This document shows positions 48,889 through 56,200 of a DNA stretch of 64,000 nt, piece by piece. Origin of the DNA: Escherichia coli (GTDB lineage Bacteria; Pseudomonadota; Gammaproteobacteria; Enterobacterales; Enterobacteriaceae). The stretch is from NCBI RefSeq assembly GCF_048403405.1, contig NZ_CP183129.1. One strand, given 5' to 3'. The notes below the pieces were generated by a model. The model had not been told where the DNA came from. It saw nothing but the letters and a program-made list of their open reading frames with translations, and ran no database searches. The number at the start of each line of letters is the position of its first letter. The first letter of the stretch is position 1. Both the position numbers and the translations under genes were made by a program.

Positions 48889-49436
48889 TTATCGCCCCGT
48901 AGTGGATATCAGAAAATCAATCAGGGCCTTCACTCTTTTCGTTTTACCCGCGTTTTTGGGGTAATAGAGATACACTGGCGGGTAGGTTTTCCAGTAGCTC
49001 TCCATCACCGGAATAAAACGCTCCCTGTCCGGCTGTAACTGCCAGACAGGCTCAAACTTTCTAACTGTATACCCGGATATTGCTGACAGAATTCTGCCAT
49101 CGCAGGCTTAAGAATTAACAGGTAGGCAAAACGCGAGAGCGTAATTCGCACCATCCCAGAGGGCTCCTGATGCTGGTCGCGAATGCTTTCAAGTGAGTTT
49201 TCCAGCGACTCCACCGCCGCAGCGGTCTGTTCCAGCAATAATTGACCGGTTTCCGTCAGCTCTATACGGCGGGTCGTACGCACAAAAAGCGGATGGCCGA
49301 TATACTCTTCCAGCAGCTTTAGTGCATTGCTGACGGAGGGAGGCGTAATTTCCAGTTTCCTTGCGGCTGCCGAAATATTGCCCTCCCGCGCAATGCTCTG
49401 GAAGATGCGAATCTGGTTATAAAGAGCGTTATTCAT
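48889..49436 (-). pseudogene. LysR-family regulator, frameshifted and internally shortened
   Basis: N-terminal 143-aa ORF (49005-49436) has the LysR HTH (ISAAARKLEITPPSVSNALKLLEE) and stops prematurely; a second frame (48889 to about 49075) encodes a LysR-like C-terminus (...KTKRVKALIDFLISTTGR*). Total is about 180 codons against about 300 expected. Confidence 0.55.
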
Positions 49437-49571
49437 AATGTTTTCCTAAGCAATTCTCGCCTGATTATTAAGTACAGTCTAAAAATGCTTAAGTCAATGA
49501 CCCTCTAATCTTCCTGAAATACGCCTCTTATACTTTAGTCTCTTTCTACTACGACCTGAGTTCAGGAGACT

Positions 49572-49883
49572 ATGATGCGAATTTTATGTCTGGATATCCC
49601 TGCCCCTGGAGCATCGCTGGAGAAATATGCTCCGCACCTCAACGCTGAAGCGCTGCACGCCTGGGGATTGTATAAATCAGGCTTCATCCGCGACATCTAC
49701 TTCCGTCAGGACAGACCTGGCGTCGCTATTTTTCTTGAATGTGACTCTGTCGATGAAGCGATGAACGTTATGGCCGAATTCCCGTTGGCAAAAGCAGGCT
49801 TACTAAGCTTCGAGTGTATACCGCTTGGCTCCTTTATTAACTGGGAAAATCTCTTCGCCGATGAATTTAAAAATAAAGAGTGA
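49572..49883 (+). CDS. Small dimeric alpha+beta-barrel protein, muconolactone isomerase-like
   Basis: 103-aa ORF; the pattern R(P)GV-x-FLECDSVDEAMNVMAEFPL resembles the MLI family core (...VFDV-SxEAxH-x-LxxLPL...); AGGAG Shine-Dalgarno upstream. Confidence 0.55.
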   Translation: MMRILCLDIPAPGASLEKYAPHLNAEALHAWGLYKSGFIRDIYFRQDRPGVAIFLECDSVDEAMNVMAEFPLAKAGLLSFECIPLGSFINWENLFADEFKNKE

Positions 49884-49891
49884 GGACCGAT

Positions 49892-50581
49892 ATGAAACCT
49901 GCATATAAACCAGTGCTATGTGTCGTTTCCAGCCATCCGATTAAAGGCGCATCCGGTGTACCAACCGGTTTTTTCCTGGCCGAGCTGACTCATCCGCTGA
50001 AAGTACTGGAAGATGCCGGAATAAAAACAACAATAGCCAGTATTCGCGGGGGGCAGCCACCGGTGGATGGATTTGACCTCAGCGACCCTGTTAACGCCTG
50101 GTACTGGAACGAAACCGATTTTCAGCAGCGCCTGGCAACAACACCTGCGTTATCCGAGCTGAAAGGTGCCGATTACAGCGCAGTTTTCTTTGCAGGTGGT
50201 CATGGGACCATGTGGGATTTCCGTGATAATCAGGATGCCCAGCGTATTATCCGCGAAGTGTATGAAAGTGATGGGATTGTCTCAGCCGTCTGCCACGGGC
50301 CTGCGGCATTGGTTGACGCAAAACTCAGTAGCGGCGAATACCTGATAAAAGGGAAAAATGTGGCGGCCTTTACCAACAAGGAAGAGGAAGAAGTTCACAC
50401 AACAGATGTGGTTCCCTTCCTGCTTGAAACCGCACTTCGCGAGCATGGTGCGCTTTATCATGAAGCTCCAAACTGGTCTGAAAACGTGGTTACCGACGAT
50501 CGCCTTATCACGGGGCAGAATCCCGCTTCAGCACATGGGGTTGGTGTGGCGCTGTTAAATGCACTCCGCCGGACAGCTTAA
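49892..50581 (+). CDS. DJ-1/PfpI-family (class I glutamine amidotransferase-like) protein
   Basis: About 229 aa from MKPAYKPVLCVVSS...; conserved nucleophile-elbow Cys context (AVCHGPAAL); GAGGA Shine-Dalgarno before the ATG at 49892; 8 nt after the previous stop. Confidence 0.8.
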   Translation: MKPAYKPVLCVVSSHPIKGASGVPTGFFLAELTHPLKVLEDAGIKTTIASIRGGQPPVDGFDLSDPVNAWYWNETDFQQRLATTPALSELKGADYSAVFFAGGHGTMWDFRDNQDAQRIIREVYESDGIVSAVCHGPAALVDAKLSSGEYLIKGKNVAAFTNKEEEEVHTTDVVPFLLETALREHGALYHEAPNWSENVVTDDRLITGQNPASAHGVGVALLNALRRTA

Positions 50582-50654
50582 TTAATTCATCGTTACTCAC
50601 CTTACTTGGCCGGTTTAAGTCAGCCACGATCCGGCCTTTTTTCAGGAGCTGAAT

Positions 50655-51602
50655 ATGAAAACACTACCTCCAGTCGCACTAGGTACATGGTCCTGGGGCA
50701 CAGGCTTTGCCGGCGGCGACACCGTCTTTGGTAATCATCTTTCTGATACTCAGATGGCAGAAGTGTTCACTGCGGCCATGAGTAAGGGCCTCAATCTCTG
50801 GGATACCGCAGCAGTATATGGTATGGGGAGTTCCGAGACTGCGCTGGGAGCATTAGTCCGTCAGTTTCCCCGCGAGAACATAATTTTATCCACCAAATTC
50901 ACGCCGCAGATTGCGGACAAGCAGTCTGCGCAGCCTGTCAGCGATATGCTTGAGGCCAGCCTTGGGCGCCTGGGCGTGGACGCGATTGATATCTACTGGA
51001 TCCATAATCCCCTCGACGTCGAAAAATGGACACCAGGACTGATCCCACTTTTACAAAGCGGTAAGGTAAAACGCGTAGGTGTTTCCAACCACAATCTGGC
51101 ACAAATCAGACGCGCCAATGAAATCCTTAACGCTTCCGGTTATTCCCTCAGTGCAGTACAAAATCACTACAGCCTGCTCTATCGCGCTTCTGAAGAGGCC
51201 GGGATCCTTGATTATTGCCGACAAAATAACATCACGTTCTTTGCTTACATGGTCCTGGAGCAAGGCGCGCTCAGTGGTCGTTATGATTCAAATCATCCCA
51301 TGCCTGCCGGGAGTGGCCGGGCCGAAAGTTATAACGCAGTACTGCCGCAGATAGAAAGACTAACCGCCGCCATGAAAAAAATGGGAGCCGAAAGGAATGC
51401 CAGCGTGGCACAGATAGCCATCGCATGGGCTATTGCGAAAGGTACCCTTCCCCTCGTTGGTGCGACTAAAGTCCATCACGTTCTGGACGCCGCCTGCGCT
51501 TCAGACATCCAGTTACGCGATGAGGAAATCATCCTGCTGGAACAACTCGCCGCAGAGACCAGAGTGGATACACGAGGCGCCTGGGAAAAACCGATGGTGT
51601 AA
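50655..51602 (+). CDS. Aldo/keto reductase
   Basis: 315-aa ORF with AKR fold features (WDTAAVYG, IDIYWIHNP, GVSNH). Confidence 0.85.
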   Translation: MKTLPPVALGTWSWGTGFAGGDTVFGNHLSDTQMAEVFTAAMSKGLNLWDTAAVYGMGSSETALGALVRQFPRENIILSTKFTPQIADKQSAQPVSDMLEASLGRLGVDAIDIYWIHNPLDVEKWTPGLIPLLQSGKVKRVGVSNHNLAQIRRANEILNASGYSLSAVQNHYSLLYRASEEAGILDYCRQNNITFFAYMVLEQGALSGRYDSNHPMPAGSGRAESYNAVLPQIERLTAAMKKMGAERNASVAQIAIAWAIAKGTLPLVGATKVHHVLDAACASDIQLRDEEIILLEQLAAETRVDTRGAWEKPMV

Positions 51603-51704
51603 AGCCCGTCCGGAACAGACTGTCATGAATGACACACACGAACGGGCTGTTCCGGGTGATTCTAATCTGTATCACTTTTACTGCTTTGTATGAATGGTGA
51701 GAAT

Positions 51705-52381
51705 ATGAAAATCATTTGCCTCGAAGAACATTATCTCGACAGCGAGTTAGGGCGAGCGTGTATGCCTGTTGCGCTTGAGCAGGCACCTTTCCTTGGCGAC
51801 TGGGGGAAAACCGTCGCTGATGGTCATAATCCTGACCGACTCCCTGCTTTCCCGCTTTAATAAACTGAATGTGCCACTCTATCTTCATCCCGGGTTACCG
51901 CTTAAAAGCGTACAGCAGGCCTACTTCACGGGCTTCAGCGCAGAGGTCAACGCCAGGCTTTCTATGTTTGCCTGGGGCTGGCATCACGAAGCGGGGATCC
52001 ATTTGTTGCGGCTGATGTTATCGGGCGCATTTGATAAATATCCCAACCTGCAGGTAATCAGTGGCCACTGGGGGGAGATGTTACCCTTCTGGCTCCAGCG
52101 TCTTGATGACAGCCTACCACTGGCTGCAACGGGTCTGTCACGCACGCTAACGAGAACCTTCCAGGAACACGTTTACGTTACCCCGTCATATGCTAACACT
52201 GCCGCACTTCCAGTTTATCTACGCGTTAATGGGTGCTGAAAGGATCCTGTTCTCCGTCGATTATCCCTATCAGACCCTGGACGGTGTAAAAACCTTTATA
52301 GACAGTCTGCCCGTCAACAAGGCTGAAAAAGAGGCCATCGCGTTTCGCAATGCAGAACGTTTACTGGGCATCACGGTTTAG
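51705..52381 (+). pseudogene. Amidohydrolase-2 (ACMSD/LigW-like metal-dependent hydrolase/decarboxylase) with at least two frameshifts
   Basis: Three consecutive fragments in different frames: MKIICLEEHY... (51705 to about 51860), ...ISGHWGEMLPFWLQRLDD... (track ORF 51769-52239) and ...FSVDYPYQTLDGVKTFIDSLPVNKAEKEAIAFRNAERLLGI (52190-52381). Confidence 0.5.
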
Positions 52382-52531
52382 TTCACCGTTTCATGATGAT
52401 TGAGCACATTGTGATCAGCCGACAATTATTAGTTTTTGCCTAAAAGTGAATGAGCCTTTACTGCTCTAAAAAAATAATGTTGTCACTCTATACTGGATTT
52501 AATATTCACCAAAGATGTTTAACTGATTGAA

Positions 52532-53104
52532 ATGAAAAATATCCTTGTTATTTCAGGTCATCCTGAGCTTACCCATTCCGTCGCCAATGCCACTATTCTT
52601 GATGAAGTGGAGACCGCCCTTCCCGATGTTGAGATTCGTCGTCTGGACAGGCTCTATCCGGATGGCAAATTCAACATCGCGGCGGAGCAGGAAAGCCTGC
52701 TCAGGGCCGATGTGATTGTCTGGCAGTTCCCTTTTTCCTGGTATGGGCTGCCAGGATTAATGAAAAAATGGCTGGACGAGGTCTTTGTTCACGGCTTCGC
52801 GCATGGCTCAACGGCGAAACTGGGCGGTAAAAAGCTGATCCTCTCCTTTACAACGGGAGCGCCAGAGGAGCTCTATACCGTCGACAGTTTCTTTGGCCAT
52901 ACCATTGAAGAGTATCTAATTCCGTTCGAGACCACAGCAAAACTGTGCAATCTTGAGCTGCTGGAGCCGGTTTATACCTGCGGTATCAGCTATGCCGATC
53001 GGGATGCCGACAAACTCGCGCAGCAAAAAACGCTTGCCTGGGAACACGCTTCAAGGCTTGTCGATCTGCTCAATTCCGTCGTGAATAATCCAGAGGGAGA
53101 ATAA
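52532..53104 (+). CDS. Flavodoxin-like-fold NAD(P)H:quinone oxidoreductase (KefF/KefG/YwrO-like)
   Basis: 190 aa; N-terminus MKNILVISGHPELTHSVANATIL... and the FPFSWYGLPGLMKKWLDEVF block resemble KefG-type quinone reductases. Confidence 0.75.
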   Translation: MKNILVISGHPELTHSVANATILDEVETALPDVEIRRLDRLYPDGKFNIAAEQESLLRADVIVWQFPFSWYGLPGLMKKWLDEVFVHGFAHGSTAKLGGKKLILSFTTGAPEELYTVDSFFGHTIEEYLIPFETTAKLCNLELLEPVYTCGISYADRDADKLAQQKTLAWEHASRLVDLLNSVVNNPEGE

Positions 53105-53106
53105 CA

Positions 53107-54126
53107 ATGCAGTATACCCGGCTCGGTAAAAGTAACTTACTTGTTTCCCGCATCTGCATGGGATGCATGGGGTTTGGCGATCCGTCGACGGGTCAGCATA
53201 GCTGGACGCTGGACGAAACAGCAAGCCGCGACATCATTCGCTATGGCCTTGAAAAGGGCATCAACTTTTACGATACCGCTATAGCCTACCAGAATGGCTC
53301 CAGTGAGCGATACGTTGGCCGGGCATTACGGGAGATGGCGAAACGCGATGATATCGTCCTGGCCACCAAGTTTCTGCCGCGAACCCCCGCACAAATTGCC
53401 GGAGGGATCAGCGGAAAAGAGGCAATCGCTCAATCCCTTGACCAGAGCCTGAAGAATCTGGGGATGGACTATATCGACCTCTACATCTACCACATCTGGG
53501 ATTACAACACGCCCATTATCGACGTGCTTGAAGCGTTATATGCCGCTGTTACTGCTGGCAAAGTACGAGCTGTTGGTATTTCAAACTGCTATGCCTGGCA
53601 GCTGGCGAAGGCGAACGCCCTTGCTGAACGCGAAGGGCTGACGCCCTTTGTTTCCGTACAGAGCCACTACAATCTAATTATGCGCGAAGATGAACGGGAG
53701 CTCTTCGGCCTGTGCACTGAGGATAATATCGCAATGACCCCCTATAGCGCGCTGGCCAGCGGCCGCCTCTCTCGTAAAGAAGGCTATACACGGCGAGCCA
53801 CAGAGGATGACTATGCGCGTGGAAAATATGACAGCACGGCTGAACAGGATCGCAGCATTATTGAGCGTGTAGCCGAACTGGCCGAACGCCATCTGGTGTC
53901 AATGACGGAAATATCTCTCGCTTGGCTGCTGACAAAAGTCACATCACCTGTCGTAGGGGCTACAAAAAAAGCTCATGTCGATGGCGCGGTAAACGCAGTA
54001 AATCTTCAACTAAGTCCGGAGGAAATTCAGTTTCTGGAAGAAACCTACCAGCCGCATGTTCTGACGGGGATCATGGCGCAAAATACGCCGCAAACGAAAG
54101 ATGTTAAGCAGGTCTGGATGCGATAG
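53107..54126 (+). CDS. Aldo/keto reductase (Tas/YdjG-like)
   Basis: 339 aa; AKR motifs (FYDTAIAYQNG, IDLYIYHIWD, GISNC); starts 3 nt after the preceding gene, so probably co-transcribed. Confidence 0.85.
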   Translation: MQYTRLGKSNLLVSRICMGCMGFGDPSTGQHSWTLDETASRDIIRYGLEKGINFYDTAIAYQNGSSERYVGRALREMAKRDDIVLATKFLPRTPAQIAGGISGKEAIAQSLDQSLKNLGMDYIDLYIYHIWDYNTPIIDVLEALYAAVTAGKVRAVGISNCYAWQLAKANALAEREGLTPFVSVQSHYNLIMREDERELFGLCTEDNIAMTPYSALASGRLSRKEGYTRRATEDDYARGKYDSTAEQDRSIIERVAELAERHLVSMTEISLAWLLTKVTSPVVGATKKAHVDGAVNAVNLQLSPEEIQFLEETYQPHVLTGIMAQNTPQTKDVKQVWMR

Positions 54127-54241
54127 CCCTTATTCACTTTTCCTCCTCTCGTCTTTGAGAGCGCCAGTAGCGGTCGGTTACGTTCTTACCAGCACCAGTT
54201 GATCGAACGTCTTAAACAGTAACGTCAGTAAAAAGATCATC

Positions 54242-54967
54242 GTGAAAAAGACTTTTATGCTTTTAATTTGCATGCTAATAAGCAGCCCTGTCTTTGCAAC
54301 AAAACCGGACGCGCCGAATAAGCCGGAGATGAATATCTTCGAGCTCGGCATCAGACCCGATCGGGACAACGACTTTGCAGACGTGGCCAGACAGACGATT
54401 TCCGCTTCGGTTGATCATGAAGCAGGTACACTGGCGATGTATGCCCTGCAACGCAGCGACAATTCAGGTCAGGCATTCATGTTCGAACTCTATGAAAATG
54501 AGCGTGCTTATCGCAAACATCTCAATGCCGCCCCATACAAAGCATTCGCTGCTCGTGCAGCTGACATTATTGACAGGAAGAAGAAAATTACCCTGGAGCC
54601 ACAGTTTCTGGGCGACAAACACATCATACCGAATGAACGAACTATCAATAATCTGGTGATCGTCGAAGTAAAGCCTGAATTTCAGAGCGAATTTAGAAAC
54701 ATCGTCCTTCCTGAAATGGTCGAGTCGCTCAAAGTAGAGAAAGGCGTGTTAGCCATGTATGCCGGTACAGATTCAGAGACTCCAAAACGCTGGTATTTCT
54801 ATGAGATTTACGCCAGTGAGGAGGATTATCAACTGCACCGACAAACGCTGCACTTCCTGGAATACCTCAGGCAAACGGCGCATATGAGCGCCAGGAAGGA
54901 CGCAATCCCGGTAAAACCGGTATTTCTTCGTAACAAAGGCGGAATCAAACAGGAGCCGCAACGTTGA
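54242..54967 (+). CDS. Secreted protein with tandem ABM (antibiotic-biosynthesis-monooxygenase-like) domains
   Basis: 241 aa; N-terminal signal peptide (MLLICMLISSPVFA|TKPD); two repeats of an ABM-like ferredoxin fold (LAMYALQRSDN...FMFELYENERAYRKH and LAMYAGTDSETP...YFYEIYASEEDYQLH). Confidence 0.65.
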   Translation: MKKTFMLLICMLISSPVFATKPDAPNKPEMNIFELGIRPDRDNDFADVARQTISASVDHEAGTLAMYALQRSDNSGQAFMFELYENERAYRKHLNAAPYKAFAARAADIIDRKKKITLEPQFLGDKHIIPNERTINNLVIVEVKPEFQSEFRNIVLPEMVESLKVEKGVLAMYAGTDSETPKRWYFYEIYASEEDYQLHRQTLHFLEYLRQTAHMSARKDAIPVKPVFLRNKGGIKQEPQR

Positions 54968-54982
54968 CCAGTAAGGATTAAC

Positions 54983-55786
54983 ATGAAAAGCGTACTTGCA
55001 GCAGCGGCTATGTCGCTTGTTATTTCTGATTTTGCCAATGCTGAGGAAACAAGAGGTAAAGCTATGATGAAAATAGAACCGTCAGCGATTTCGGAAGCTG
55101 ATATTCGTTCCGTCTCACCGGCTCTCGCGCGCTTTGGTCGCGAAGCTATTACTGAAGATCTGTGGACACGCGACGCCCTCTCACCGAGGGATCGTAGTGT
55201 GGTGACCGTCGCCATGCTGATTGCCCGCAACCAGCCTGCCGAGCTTAAGCACTATATTGACGTCGCTCTCGATAGCGGCGTGACGCCAGCGGAATTATCA
55301 GAAATCATTACCCATCTGGCGTTCTACTCAGGTTGGCCAAATGCAATGTCAGCCGTCAGCGTGACCAAAGCAGTATTTGAAACTCGTGGCGTCACGCCAG
55401 ATGCGCTTCCTGACACTTCTCCGGACCTGCTTCCTCTCAATCAGGAAGCAGAAAAGCAGCGTTCAGAGACAGTGGAAAAAAATGTTGGCCGAATATCTCC
55501 AGGCTTGGTTAAATTTACTGCTGACCCACTGTTCCTGGATCTCTGGCAAAGACCCGCGCTAACCCCCCGTGATAGAAGCCTGATTACGGTCAGCGCGTTA
55601 ATCGCATCTGGACAGAGCGCGCAGATTGGCTATCACCTTAACAGAGCGATGGATAATGGACTTTCTGCTGAGGAAGCTGGGGAGATCGTTACCCAAGCCG
55701 CGTTTTACGCTGGCTGGCCAAACGCATTTACCGCTGCTCCGGTTGTGGGAGAGGTGCTAAACAATCGATCATCGAGTAAAAGGTAA
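54983..55786 (+). CDS. Secreted protein with tandem carboxymuconolactone-decarboxylase (CMD/AhpD-like) domains
   Basis: 267 aa; signal peptide (MKSVLAAAAMSLVISDFANA); two CMD-like repeats (LSPRDRSVVTVAMLIARNQ...HLAFYSGWPNA and LTPRDRSLITVSALIASGQ...QAAFYAGWPNA). Confidence 0.7.
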   Translation: MKSVLAAAAMSLVISDFANAEETRGKAMMKIEPSAISEADIRSVSPALARFGREAITEDLWTRDALSPRDRSVVTVAMLIARNQPAELKHYIDVALDSGVTPAELSEIITHLAFYSGWPNAMSAVSVTKAVFETRGVTPDALPDTSPDLLPLNQEAEKQRSETVEKNVGRISPGLVKFTADPLFLDLWQRPALTPRDRSLITVSALIASGQSAQIGYHLNRAMDNGLSAEEAGEIVTQAAFYAGWPNAFTAAPVVGEVLNNRSSSKR

Positions 55787-56200
55787 CATTACTGAACACT
55801 AAAACCTGACGCACATCACAACATTAGAACGAACAGTTCATGAACCAATAAGCGTAACATCGAGTGATTTATGGACAGCGTTTAACACAGTTATGAACCA
55901 AAACTGAGTTCATAACTGTGAGTTTGAATCGCCATTTGATTAATATCCATTTAAAACAGTTTGTTATGCTGTTTCTGGTGCTGAAGTCAATTATGTATAT
56001 CCCTCAAACCCAGAATAGTTAAATGGAATTTGAGTGATGCGAAGCGATTTTCCAGTCGTCGTTATTACTTCAGGGTTCCAGAACATAAAGCCTCTCCTCT
56101 TTCATGATTGGCCTGTGCATACCGGATATAGGCTGGCTGGTATGCAGGTTTGCCGTTTGCCGCATCTTCCCTGCGTTGAAGAGTCAGGCTGGCAAACCGC

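Follow-up and report, generated by a model that had tools for sequence, protein, structure and literature searches.

Adjacent genes for tandem-ABM and tandem-CMD proteins

The window analyzed here, meaning the whole 64-kb stretch of DNA, belongs to the Escherichia coli chromosome. Between positions 54242 and 55786, it carries two adjacent genes that encode a tandem-ABM protein and a tandem-CMD protein, which we refer to as ABM2 and CMD2. Both genes are real, intact, and under purifying selection, and they occupy the final two positions in a horizontally mobile operon with a LysR-family regulator. Based on their N-termini and those of their relatives, both products are very probably exported to the periplasm through the Sec pathway. 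The two genes and their parts are as follows.

54242..54967, + strand: ABM2, gene for a tandem-ABM protein predicted to be exported; open reading frame (ORF) of 241 amino acids (aa) counted from GTG 54242, with the RefSeq start at 54272
54242..54298, + strand: predicted Sec signal peptide of ABM2 (MKKTFMLLICMLISSPVFA, predicted cut before TKPD), from rules and comparison
54335..54553, + strand: ABM domain 1, aa 32-104 (Pfam PF03992, E 4.7e-11)
54662..54868, + strand: ABM domain 2, aa 141-209 (Pfam PF03992, E 8.2e-12)
54983..55786, + strand: CMD2, gene for a tandem-CMD protein predicted to be exported; ORF of 267 aa with an AGGA ribosome-binding site 6 nt upstream
54983..55042, + strand: predicted Sec signal peptide of CMD2 (MKSVLAAAAMSLVISDFANA, predicted cut before EETR), from rules and comparison
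55142..55369, + strand: CMD domain 1, aa 54-129, motif SEIITHLAFYSGWPNA (Pfam PF02627, E 7.4e-17)
55508..55747, + strand: CMD domain 2, aa 176-255, motif GEIVTQAAFYAGWPNA (Pfam PF02627, E 2.6e-18)

The genes are spaced 15 bp apart. A preliminary description, made from the letters of this window, had proposed that each of the two neighbors bears a signal peptide and an internal duplication. The Pfam domain pairs, alignments of the halves, and signal features in relatives bore this out. The halves of ABM2 align to one another with 26% identity (E 7e-14) and those of CMD2 with 43% identity (E 7e-32).

Structure prediction also supported the fused pseudo-dimers that the same description had expected. 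The AlphaFold model of ABM2 (predicted local distance difference test score, pLDDT, 93.5) contains two ferredoxin-like beta-alpha-beta units in a single chain. Using phmmer against the PDB, ABM2 residues 28-236, the full mature length, matched 3MCS (E 1.4e-24) and 3F44 (E 1.6e-19). Foldseek placed the model on both structures with template modeling (TM) scores of 0.84/0.92-0.96 and a root-mean-square deviation of 1.3-1.6 Å (0.84/0.96 and 1.3 Å for 3F44). These two proteins, from Lactobacillus acidophilus (3F44) and Fusobacterium nucleatum (3MCS, FN1347), are each labeled 'putative monooxygenase' and have the same fused double-ABM fold as ABM2, but they share only 25-26% identity with it, and their crystallized chains open at the mature domain with no signal peptide. 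The CMD2 model (pLDDT 80) is an all-helical double CMD bundle that fits PDB 4G9Q, a structural-genomics entry from Sinorhizobium meliloti with the same double-CMD architecture (50% identity, E 1.4e-73; TM 0.82/0.91). With solved structural-genomics homologs for both proteins, the tandem architecture is not unusual, contrary to what had been suggested.

Predicted signal peptides and the start of ABM2

Signal peptides were judged by a rule-based check, AlphaFold confidence, and comparison across relatives, of which the relatives provided the strongest line. Under a Sec rule set that asks for a positive n-region, 7-15 hydrophobic residues in the h-region, and a small residue at each of -3 and -1, ABM2 read from GTG 54242 parsed into MKK, TFMLLICMLISS, and VFA ahead of TKPD, and CMD2 into MK, SVLAAAAMSLVIS, and ANA ahead of EETR. 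In both, the hydrophobic core spans 12-13 residues, the n-region is positively charged, and the residues at -3 and -1 are small. When rule-based controls were included, the two N-termini were like those of the window's fimbrial subunit, chaperone, and usher, and unlike those of the cytoplasmic reductases and HipA. AlphaFold confidence was low for the N-terminal ~27 residues of ABM2 (pLDDT 54-65) and for residues 1-29 of CMD2 (below 50).

We compared these regions in a survey of ABM2 neighborhoods that took one genome per species and comprised 42 loci with ABM2, with neighbors considered within 9 kb. All proteobacterial ABM2 proteins in these loci carry an N-terminal extension that is signal-like though unrelated in sequence between lineages. 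The signal is conserved in frame in Enterobacterales and is swapped for an unrelated signal-like sequence in Neisseria, Eikenella (where it reads MKKYLAAAVAALSLSAQAA, followed by PVFNIFELG), Pasteurellaceae, and Acinetobacter. In the homologs from Streptococcus and lactobacilli, the chain opens directly at the mature domain and there is no signal. Among CMD2 homologs, the mature part is highly conserved, while the signal region is variable yet always signal-like, and the distant alpha-proteobacterial branch to which 4G9Q belongs retains a signal peptide (MKRLFAPLIGVMMMTASNAGA, ahead of QQPN). The native 4G9Q protein (P0391, a 100% full-length match to the reconstructed 4G9Q query) also has a Sec-type signal.

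The RefSeq start of ABM2, ATG 54272, lies 30 bases late and thereby removes the signal, which requires a start at GTG 54242 or ATG 54257. The codons upstream of 54272 are kept in frame in relatives, with GTG in Enterobacterales and ATG in one 72%-identical homolog, and 54242 was therefore taken as the start. As a by-product, this amounts to a correction of the RefSeq annotation, which strips the signal peptide from the ABM gene. Many database entries of both families open at internal Met codons.

Other export routes were considered and rejected. Measured against the lipobox pattern L-[AS]-[GA]-C expected where the h-region ends, ABM2 is not a candidate lipoprotein: its sequence reads L-I-C, which puts Ile at -1, and homologs have G, W, F, Y, or S in place of the Cys. 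The E. coli CMD2 signal contains no Cys and no lipobox. Twin-arginine (Tat) export of either E. coli protein was rejected because neither contains an RR.

The operon in E. coli and its decay

ABM2 and CMD2 follow a set of genes that face a divergent regulator. The remaining features of the operon are listed here.

48889..49436, - strand: divergent LysR-family (YafC-like) regulator, internally deleted (143-aa ORF left; junction 49054-49057)
49575..49883, + strand: first operon gene, encoding a 102-aa protein that is 'hypothetical' in RefSeq; faint YCII-like signal, co-conserved with the operon
49892..50581, + strand: DJ-1/PfpI-type protein (glyoxalase III/deglycase-like), cytoplasmic (RefSeq, NCBIfam)
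50655..51602, + strand: aldo-keto reductase 1 (RefSeq, NCBIfam)
51705..52381, + strand: Amidohydro_2 pseudogene in three annotated fragments (RefSeq)
52532..53104, + strand: KefF-like Flavodoxin_2 NAD(P)H oxidoreductase, cytoplasmic (NCBIfam KefF model, E 5.9e-44, below cut-off)
53107..54126, + strand: aldo-keto reductase 2 (RefSeq, NCBIfam)
54127..54241, + strand: 115-bp intergenic gap, where relatives hold DUF1330 and twin-arginine KefF-like genes (comparison with the Rahnella locus)

The order is thus LysR facing the 102-aa gene, then DJ-1, aldo-keto reductase, Amidohydro_2, KefF-like Flavodoxin_2, aldo-keto reductase, ABM2, and CMD2. The DJ-1 protein, the two aldo-keto reductases, the KefF-like reductase, and the broken Amidohydro_2 enzyme, which make up the cytoplasmic part, form a combination typical of systems that reduce quinones, dicarbonyls, and further electrophiles.

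Several members of the operon are damaged in this strain. Compared to strain MS 69-1, the LysR gene has lost ~349 bp, with blastn showing that window positions 49054-49057 join positions 6606 and 6956 of locus L001; even a 100%-identical genome matches the window as two pieces at this gene. The residual 143-aa ORF encodes the DNA-binding domain only. The intact ortholog scored 162 bits against the YafC model, for which the cut-off is 470. The Amidohydro_2 gene is fragmented in E. coli, while Rahnella encodes an intact 349-aa ortholog (Pfam E 9e-29) and the gene is also intact in Pantoea and Serratia. In addition, locus comparison showed that the DUF1330 and twin-arginine flavoprotein genes are absent from the E. 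coli operon. Together, the LysR deletion, the broken amidohydrolase, and the loss of two exported genes point to an island in decay.

For the 102-aa product of the first gene, searches returned Pfam YCII at E 0.34 only and no match in NCBIfam or the PDB, and an initial guess of muconolactone isomerase was dropped on these grounds. Its ortholog on an Enterobacter mori plasmid (L055, 4721-5029) bears the RefSeq label 'superoxide dismutase', the basis of which could not be traced.

ABM2 and CMD2 as separate modules in relatives

The preliminary description had interpreted the two genes as a periplasmic two-protein pair. The survey of 42 species loci allowed us to examine how closely they keep company. 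Flavodoxin_2 genes were found near ABM2 in 29/42 loci, aldo-keto reductase genes in 27/42, LysR genes in 21/42, and CMD2 in 12/42, such that the most constant neighbor of ABM2 is the KefF-like Flavodoxin_2 gene. CMD2 lies directly downstream of ABM2 in 11 of those 12 loci, all of them in Enterobacterales, and the other 30 loci have ABM2 without a nearby CMD2. Conversely, Klebsiella variicola, the K. oxytoca group, and Dickeya carry CMD2 but not ABM2 at loci where a LysR gene again lies ahead, a flavodoxin-fold reductase is present, and an aldo-keto reductase usually is. Because each occurs without the other in the same kind of operon, ABM2 and CMD2 are not an obligate pair but separate, optional modules of one LysR-controlled operon type, the core of which is a flavodoxin-like quinone reductase and aldo-keto reductases.

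Nevertheless, a link between exported ABM and tandem CMD proteins recurs, in the form of the adjacency in Enterobacterales, a shared operon in Sinorhizobium, and one fusion protein. In Sinorhizobium medicae, one LysR operon holds the 4G9Q ortholog together with two ABM genes of a single domain each, both signal-bearing and one of them frameshifted in this assembly; the operon also encodes a twin-arginine aldo-keto reductase (L056, 5754-6926), an exported GSDH protein, and an exported cupin. The fusion is a metagenomic protein of 381 aa, from a single contig, in which a signal precedes two CMD domains and one ABM domain, and this ABM domain can be aligned to each of the two ABM2 halves. Of the proposed pair, what stands is that export is very probable and that the ABM-CMD link recurs; self-containment does not, given the 12/42 loci with CMD2.

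Related loci encode further exported partners. In Rahnella rivi (locus L007), the interval between reductase 2 and ABM2 holds two genes, one for a signal-bearing DUF1330 protein (7971-8348, E 1.5e-29) and one for another KefF-like Flavodoxin_2 protein that is extended at its N-terminus (8382-8981). Both genes are present in Pantoea gossypiicola and on the Enterobacter mori plasmid, and one of the two is present in several other loci. Orthologs of the KefF-like flavoprotein carry twin-arginine signals: MSKFDRRTFVKG in Chelonobacter, MNPIDRRKLLQS in Eikenella, MNRRDILQ in Propionivibrio, and MKSIHRRTLLNG in another contig (L054), whose Amidohydro_2 enzyme is likewise of the twin-arginine type. 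The split is coherent, with Sec signals on cofactor-free proteins and Tat signals on cofactor-bearing ones.

A contig related to a Veillonella locus (L052, 7001-8674, P0260) encodes a fusion of a signal, Abhydrolase_3, and tandem ABM, and the fusion gene adjoins LysR, Flavodoxin_2, and YCII-like genes. Exported partner genes also lie beside ABM2 in loci L020, L023, L029, and L054. One metagenomic protein joins a signal, a cupin, and a tandem CMD.

Family relationships and limits on chemistry

RefSeq names ABM2 a 'putative quinol monooxygenase'. Its sole NCBIfam match is the LsrG isomerase model (E 1.2e-15, 57.7 bits, far under the 135-bit cut-off), and the LsrG structures 3QMQ and 2GFF are among its PDB sequence matches. 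LsrG, a cytoplasmic product of the lsr operon, is a (4S)-4-hydroxy-5-phosphonooxypentane-2,3-dione isomerase and thus an example of an ABM protein that acts as an isomerase and not as an oxygenase. It is single-domain (PDB chains of 99-106 aa), in contrast to the tandem ABM2.

A second comparison is the YgiN-MdaB quinone redox cycle of E. coli. YgiN is a single-domain, cytoplasmic homodimer. The likeness lies in an ABM-fold gene beside a flavodoxin-fold NAD(P)H quinone reductase, as ABM2 stands beside the gene at 52532-53104. ABM2 differs from YgiN in being a fused pseudo-dimer and in carrying an export signal, and the neighboring reductase is KefF-like rather than MdaB. In the paper cited for it, YgiN is described as a dimeric monooxygenase.

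For CMD2, an alignment of 34 homologs showed that E107 and H111 of the E-x3-H motif in domain 1 (SEIITH) are invariant, while the last motif position in domain 2, residue 238, is Q, H, or N across homologs. The 4G9Q protein has His in both copies of the motif, whereas E. coli CMD2 has Gln in the second. There are no cysteines in CMD2 past residue 20 and no invariant cysteine among the 34 homologs. An AhpD-like Cys motif, which the preliminary description had raised, and a thiol redox role of CMD2 fall away here: AhpD alkylhydroperoxidase shares a helical fold family with CMD2, but its catalytic CxxC, which has a His and a Glu close by, is missing, and AhpD-type thiol chemistry is ruled out because the mature protein has zero cysteines.

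The best NCBIfam matches of CMD2 are the PcaC and PcaDC models. PcaC, the 4-carboxymuconolactone decarboxylase of the beta-ketoadipate pathway, shares the CMD domain, but CMD2 is tandem, is predicted to be exported, and has no pca genes nearby; pcaB, pcaD, pcaIJ, and pcaF were found neither in the operon and its flanks (RefSeq annotation) nor in related loci. A true PcaC identity was rejected on account of the sub-cut-off score, the missing pca context, and the export signal. Another parallel is 4G9Q, whose gene likewise belongs to a LysR operon that encodes aldo-keto reductases and ABM proteins; its partners differ from those in E. coli and include a twin-arginine aldo-keto reductase, DUF2255, GSDH, and a cupin.

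Literature searches by accession, PDB code, and family name returned no characterization of exported ABM/CMD proteins or of the operon, in agreement with the preliminary statement that no characterized periplasmic ABM-CMD pair was known. Among the papers listed, none contained 4G9Q, 3F44, or FN1347, and the matches shown for 3MCS were unrelated occurrences of that string. A periplasmic-proteome paper (PMC3608174) lists an ABM protein with no signal-peptide cleavage. The S. meliloti CMD protein in PMC6180224 is of the CxxC type and hence differs from 4G9Q. The families, folds, and annotations are already known; what has not been described is that these lineages are exported and that they cluster with further exported enzymes.

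Distribution, selection, and mobility

The 1.8-kb stretch with ABM2 and CMD2 is 100% identical in strains such as MS 69-1 and was found in 497/5426 complete E. coli genomes. The island is accessory in E. coli, occurring in about 9% of complete genomes. It is flanked by hipBA on one side and a fimbrial operon (fimA-type subunit, chaperone, usher, ydeS/R/Q) on the other. Most E. coli genomes are missing the island and match only the hipA end and the annotated remnant of a helix-turn-helix regulator, which lies between the operon and the fimbrial genes at 56189-56455 and is annotated without its N-terminus.

Compared to orthologs in Rahnella, Enterobacter, and Pantoea, the ratio of nonsynonymous to synonymous substitution rates (dN/dS) was 0.23-0.29 for ABM2 and about 0.10 for CMD2. 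These values are well below 1, indicating that both genes are kept by purifying selection. The synonymous component (dS) was only 0.25-0.39 across the same comparisons. We consider this low for the genera involved and read it as indicating that the operon was transferred recently. Consistent with mobility, the full operon is present on 213-kb Enterobacter mori plasmids, beside an alkene reductase gene and an RND efflux system. Plasmids of Klebsiella and E. coli (NZ_CP050069.1, NZ_CP135651.1, and others) carry fragments that correspond to ~54263-54675 in ABM2 and ~55416-55796 in CMD2. Each is ~400 bp long, ~91% identical, and without an annotated gene; they are probably remnants of operon transfers.

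Interpretation and alternatives

The reading we favor, to which we give slightly short of an even chance, is a mobile operon that detoxifies quinones or other electrophiles, with ABM2 and CMD2 as its periplasmic branch. A role in handling quinone, phenolic, or lactone-type electrophiles seems to us evenly balanced between right and wrong, and the specific enzymatic steps outlined below are doubtful in their details. The substrate in this proposal would be a diffusible plant or dietary compound of a quinone, phenolic, or lactone type. Enzymes on either side of the inner membrane would act on it, with the cytoplasmic ones reducing it. ABM2 and CMD2 would make up the periplasmic part, each with a cleavable Sec signal and each a single-chain copy of its family's usual dimer. 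Because neither would need a cofactor, both would suit export in an unfolded state. By analogy with what has been proposed for YgiN beside MdaB, ABM2 might oxygenate or tautomerize a quinol-type intermediate, and the cysteine-free, PcaC-like CMD2 could then isomerize or decarboxylate the lactone or enol product. The lactone processing suggested in the preliminary description is possible for these proteins. In fuller operons, the periplasmic part would add the DUF1330 protein and the second KefF-like flavoprotein with its twin-arginine signal. In this strain the system would be decaying, and it may stay uninduced because its regulator is internally deleted.

Many hosts of related loci belong either to the plant-associated genera Pantoea, Pectobacterium, Erwinia, Rahnella, and Dickeya or to Neisseria, Eikenella, Lautropia, Veillonella, Streptococcus, and Fusobacterium, which are oral or respiratory commensals. 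This range would fit plant or dietary compounds, although it is suggestive only.

Several points weigh against this interpretation. The nearest characterized relative of ABM2 is the isomerase LsrG, and YgiN structures were not among its PDB sequence matches (E <= 0.01). The score of CMD2 against the PcaC equivalog TIGR02425, 117.1 bits summed over two domains, falls below the cut-off of 155.7. The signal peptides are assigned from rules and comparison, the ribosome-binding site before GTG 54242 is weak, with none that is convincing, and the compartment is not fixed in the ABM2 family, given the signal-less homologs of Streptococcus and lactobacilli. The KefF-like flavoprotein has no evident periplasmic electron donor, which leaves the redox logic of the periplasmic part unexplained. 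No substrate, inducer, or activity has been reported for any member, and we found no paper on these families. Finally, with LysR truncated, the amidohydrolase broken, and two exported partners missing, the E. coli genes may be idle remnants.

This last point can be extended to an alternative of its own, in which both genes are silent leftovers of a decaying island with no present function in this strain. We think this unlikely overall, while regarding it as the most serious competitor. The ~349-bp LysR deletion, the fragmented Amidohydro_2 gene, and the loss of the DUF1330 and twin-arginine flavoprotein genes all speak for it, as do a neighboring AraC-family gene that RefSeq annotates as a pseudogene and the shortened ABM2 variants on record for E. 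coli. However, both ORFs in the window are undisrupted and have identical alleles in several other E. coli genomes, the long-term dN/dS values lie well below 1, and constitutive or read-through expression is possible.

Less probable still is that ABM2 and CMD2 act as a dedicated periplasmic unit, one enzyme feeding the other, independently of the rest of the operon. The 15-bp spacing, adjacency in 11 Enterobacterales species, the fusion of a signal with CMD2 and ABM, and the exported ABM and CMD2 proteins found together in Sinorhizobium would all agree with such a unit. Against it stand the 30/42 ABM2 loci with no nearby CMD2 and the CMD2 genes that lack ABM2 in Klebsiella and Dickeya. Each gene also keeps closer company with Flavodoxin_2, aldo-keto reductase, and LysR than with the other, and the fusion is known from a single contig.

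It is very unlikely that the proteins are cytoplasmic and that their hydrophobic N-termini reflect a wrong start choice in ABM2 or remain uncleaved. The ABM and CMD families are mostly cytoplasmic, the RefSeq start at ATG 54272 leaves no signal, GTG 54242 lacks a clear Shine-Dalgarno sequence, and some entries for CMD2 homologs open at an internal Met. Against this, the upstream codons of ABM2 are conserved in frame, with an ATG at the same position in one homolog, and distant proteobacterial homologs keep unrelated signal-like sequences, whereas those of Streptococcus and lactobacilli have none. The signal-encoding ATG of CMD2 is preceded by a strong AGGA, and the alpha-proteobacterial CMD2 branch is signal-bearing. 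That CMD2 is an AhpD-like peroxidase or thiol-disulfide protein, or the true PcaC of the beta-ketoadipate pathway, is scarcely credible: the CMD/AhpD fold and the PcaC and PcaDC matches suggest it, but the mature protein is cysteine-free, 117 bits is below 155.7, the operon has no pca genes, and periplasmic export is ill-suited to a cytoplasmic catabolic pathway.

Beyond the periplasmic branch that we favor, a broader proposal can be made, which is speculative and on balance improbable. ABM2 and CMD2 could be what remains in E. coli of a periplasmic enzyme pathway, widespread in Proteobacteria, that has yet to be described. Such a pathway would comprise Sec-exported, cofactor-free ABM, tandem CMD, DUF1330, and cupin proteins together with a Tat-exported KefF-like flavoprotein, aldo-keto reductase, and Amidohydro_2 enzyme, under one LysR regulator and with cytoplasmic copies of similar reductases alongside. 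If it exists, it would need a novel source of periplasmic reducing power or a flavoprotein run as an oxidase.

For E. coli itself, the significance is modest, as the island is accessory, mobile, and visibly decaying. More broadly, whole lineages of ABM and CMD proteins, including one with a solved structure (4G9Q), appear to be signal-bearing and share one operon with quinone and carbonyl reductases. If the periplasmic location is true, bacteria of plants, the mouth, and the gut would handle diffusible toxic or nutrient compounds before these cross the inner membrane, using cofactor-free enzymes alongside flavoproteins exported in a folded state. This would provide a function for several structural-genomics orphans and for DUF1330, and would prompt one to ask how a KefF-like flavoprotein is supplied with electrons outside the cytoplasm.

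Other features of the window

A promoter and terminator scan of 49300-56300 found nothing exceeding shuffled expectation, and Rfam detected no RNA family within the operon. Reading the sequence directly, we noted a perfect 12-bp inverted repeat at 55887-55919 (ACAGTTATGAAC, 9 bases, GTTCATAACTGT), ~100 bp past the CMD2 stop codon. It has no T-run behind it and was not reported by the terminator scan; it may be a terminator-like hairpin or a protein-binding site. Elsewhere in the window, and unrelated to ABM2 and CMD2, Rfam matched the Hfq-binding small RNA STnc560 over its full length at 9674-9887 on the + strand (281.9 bits).

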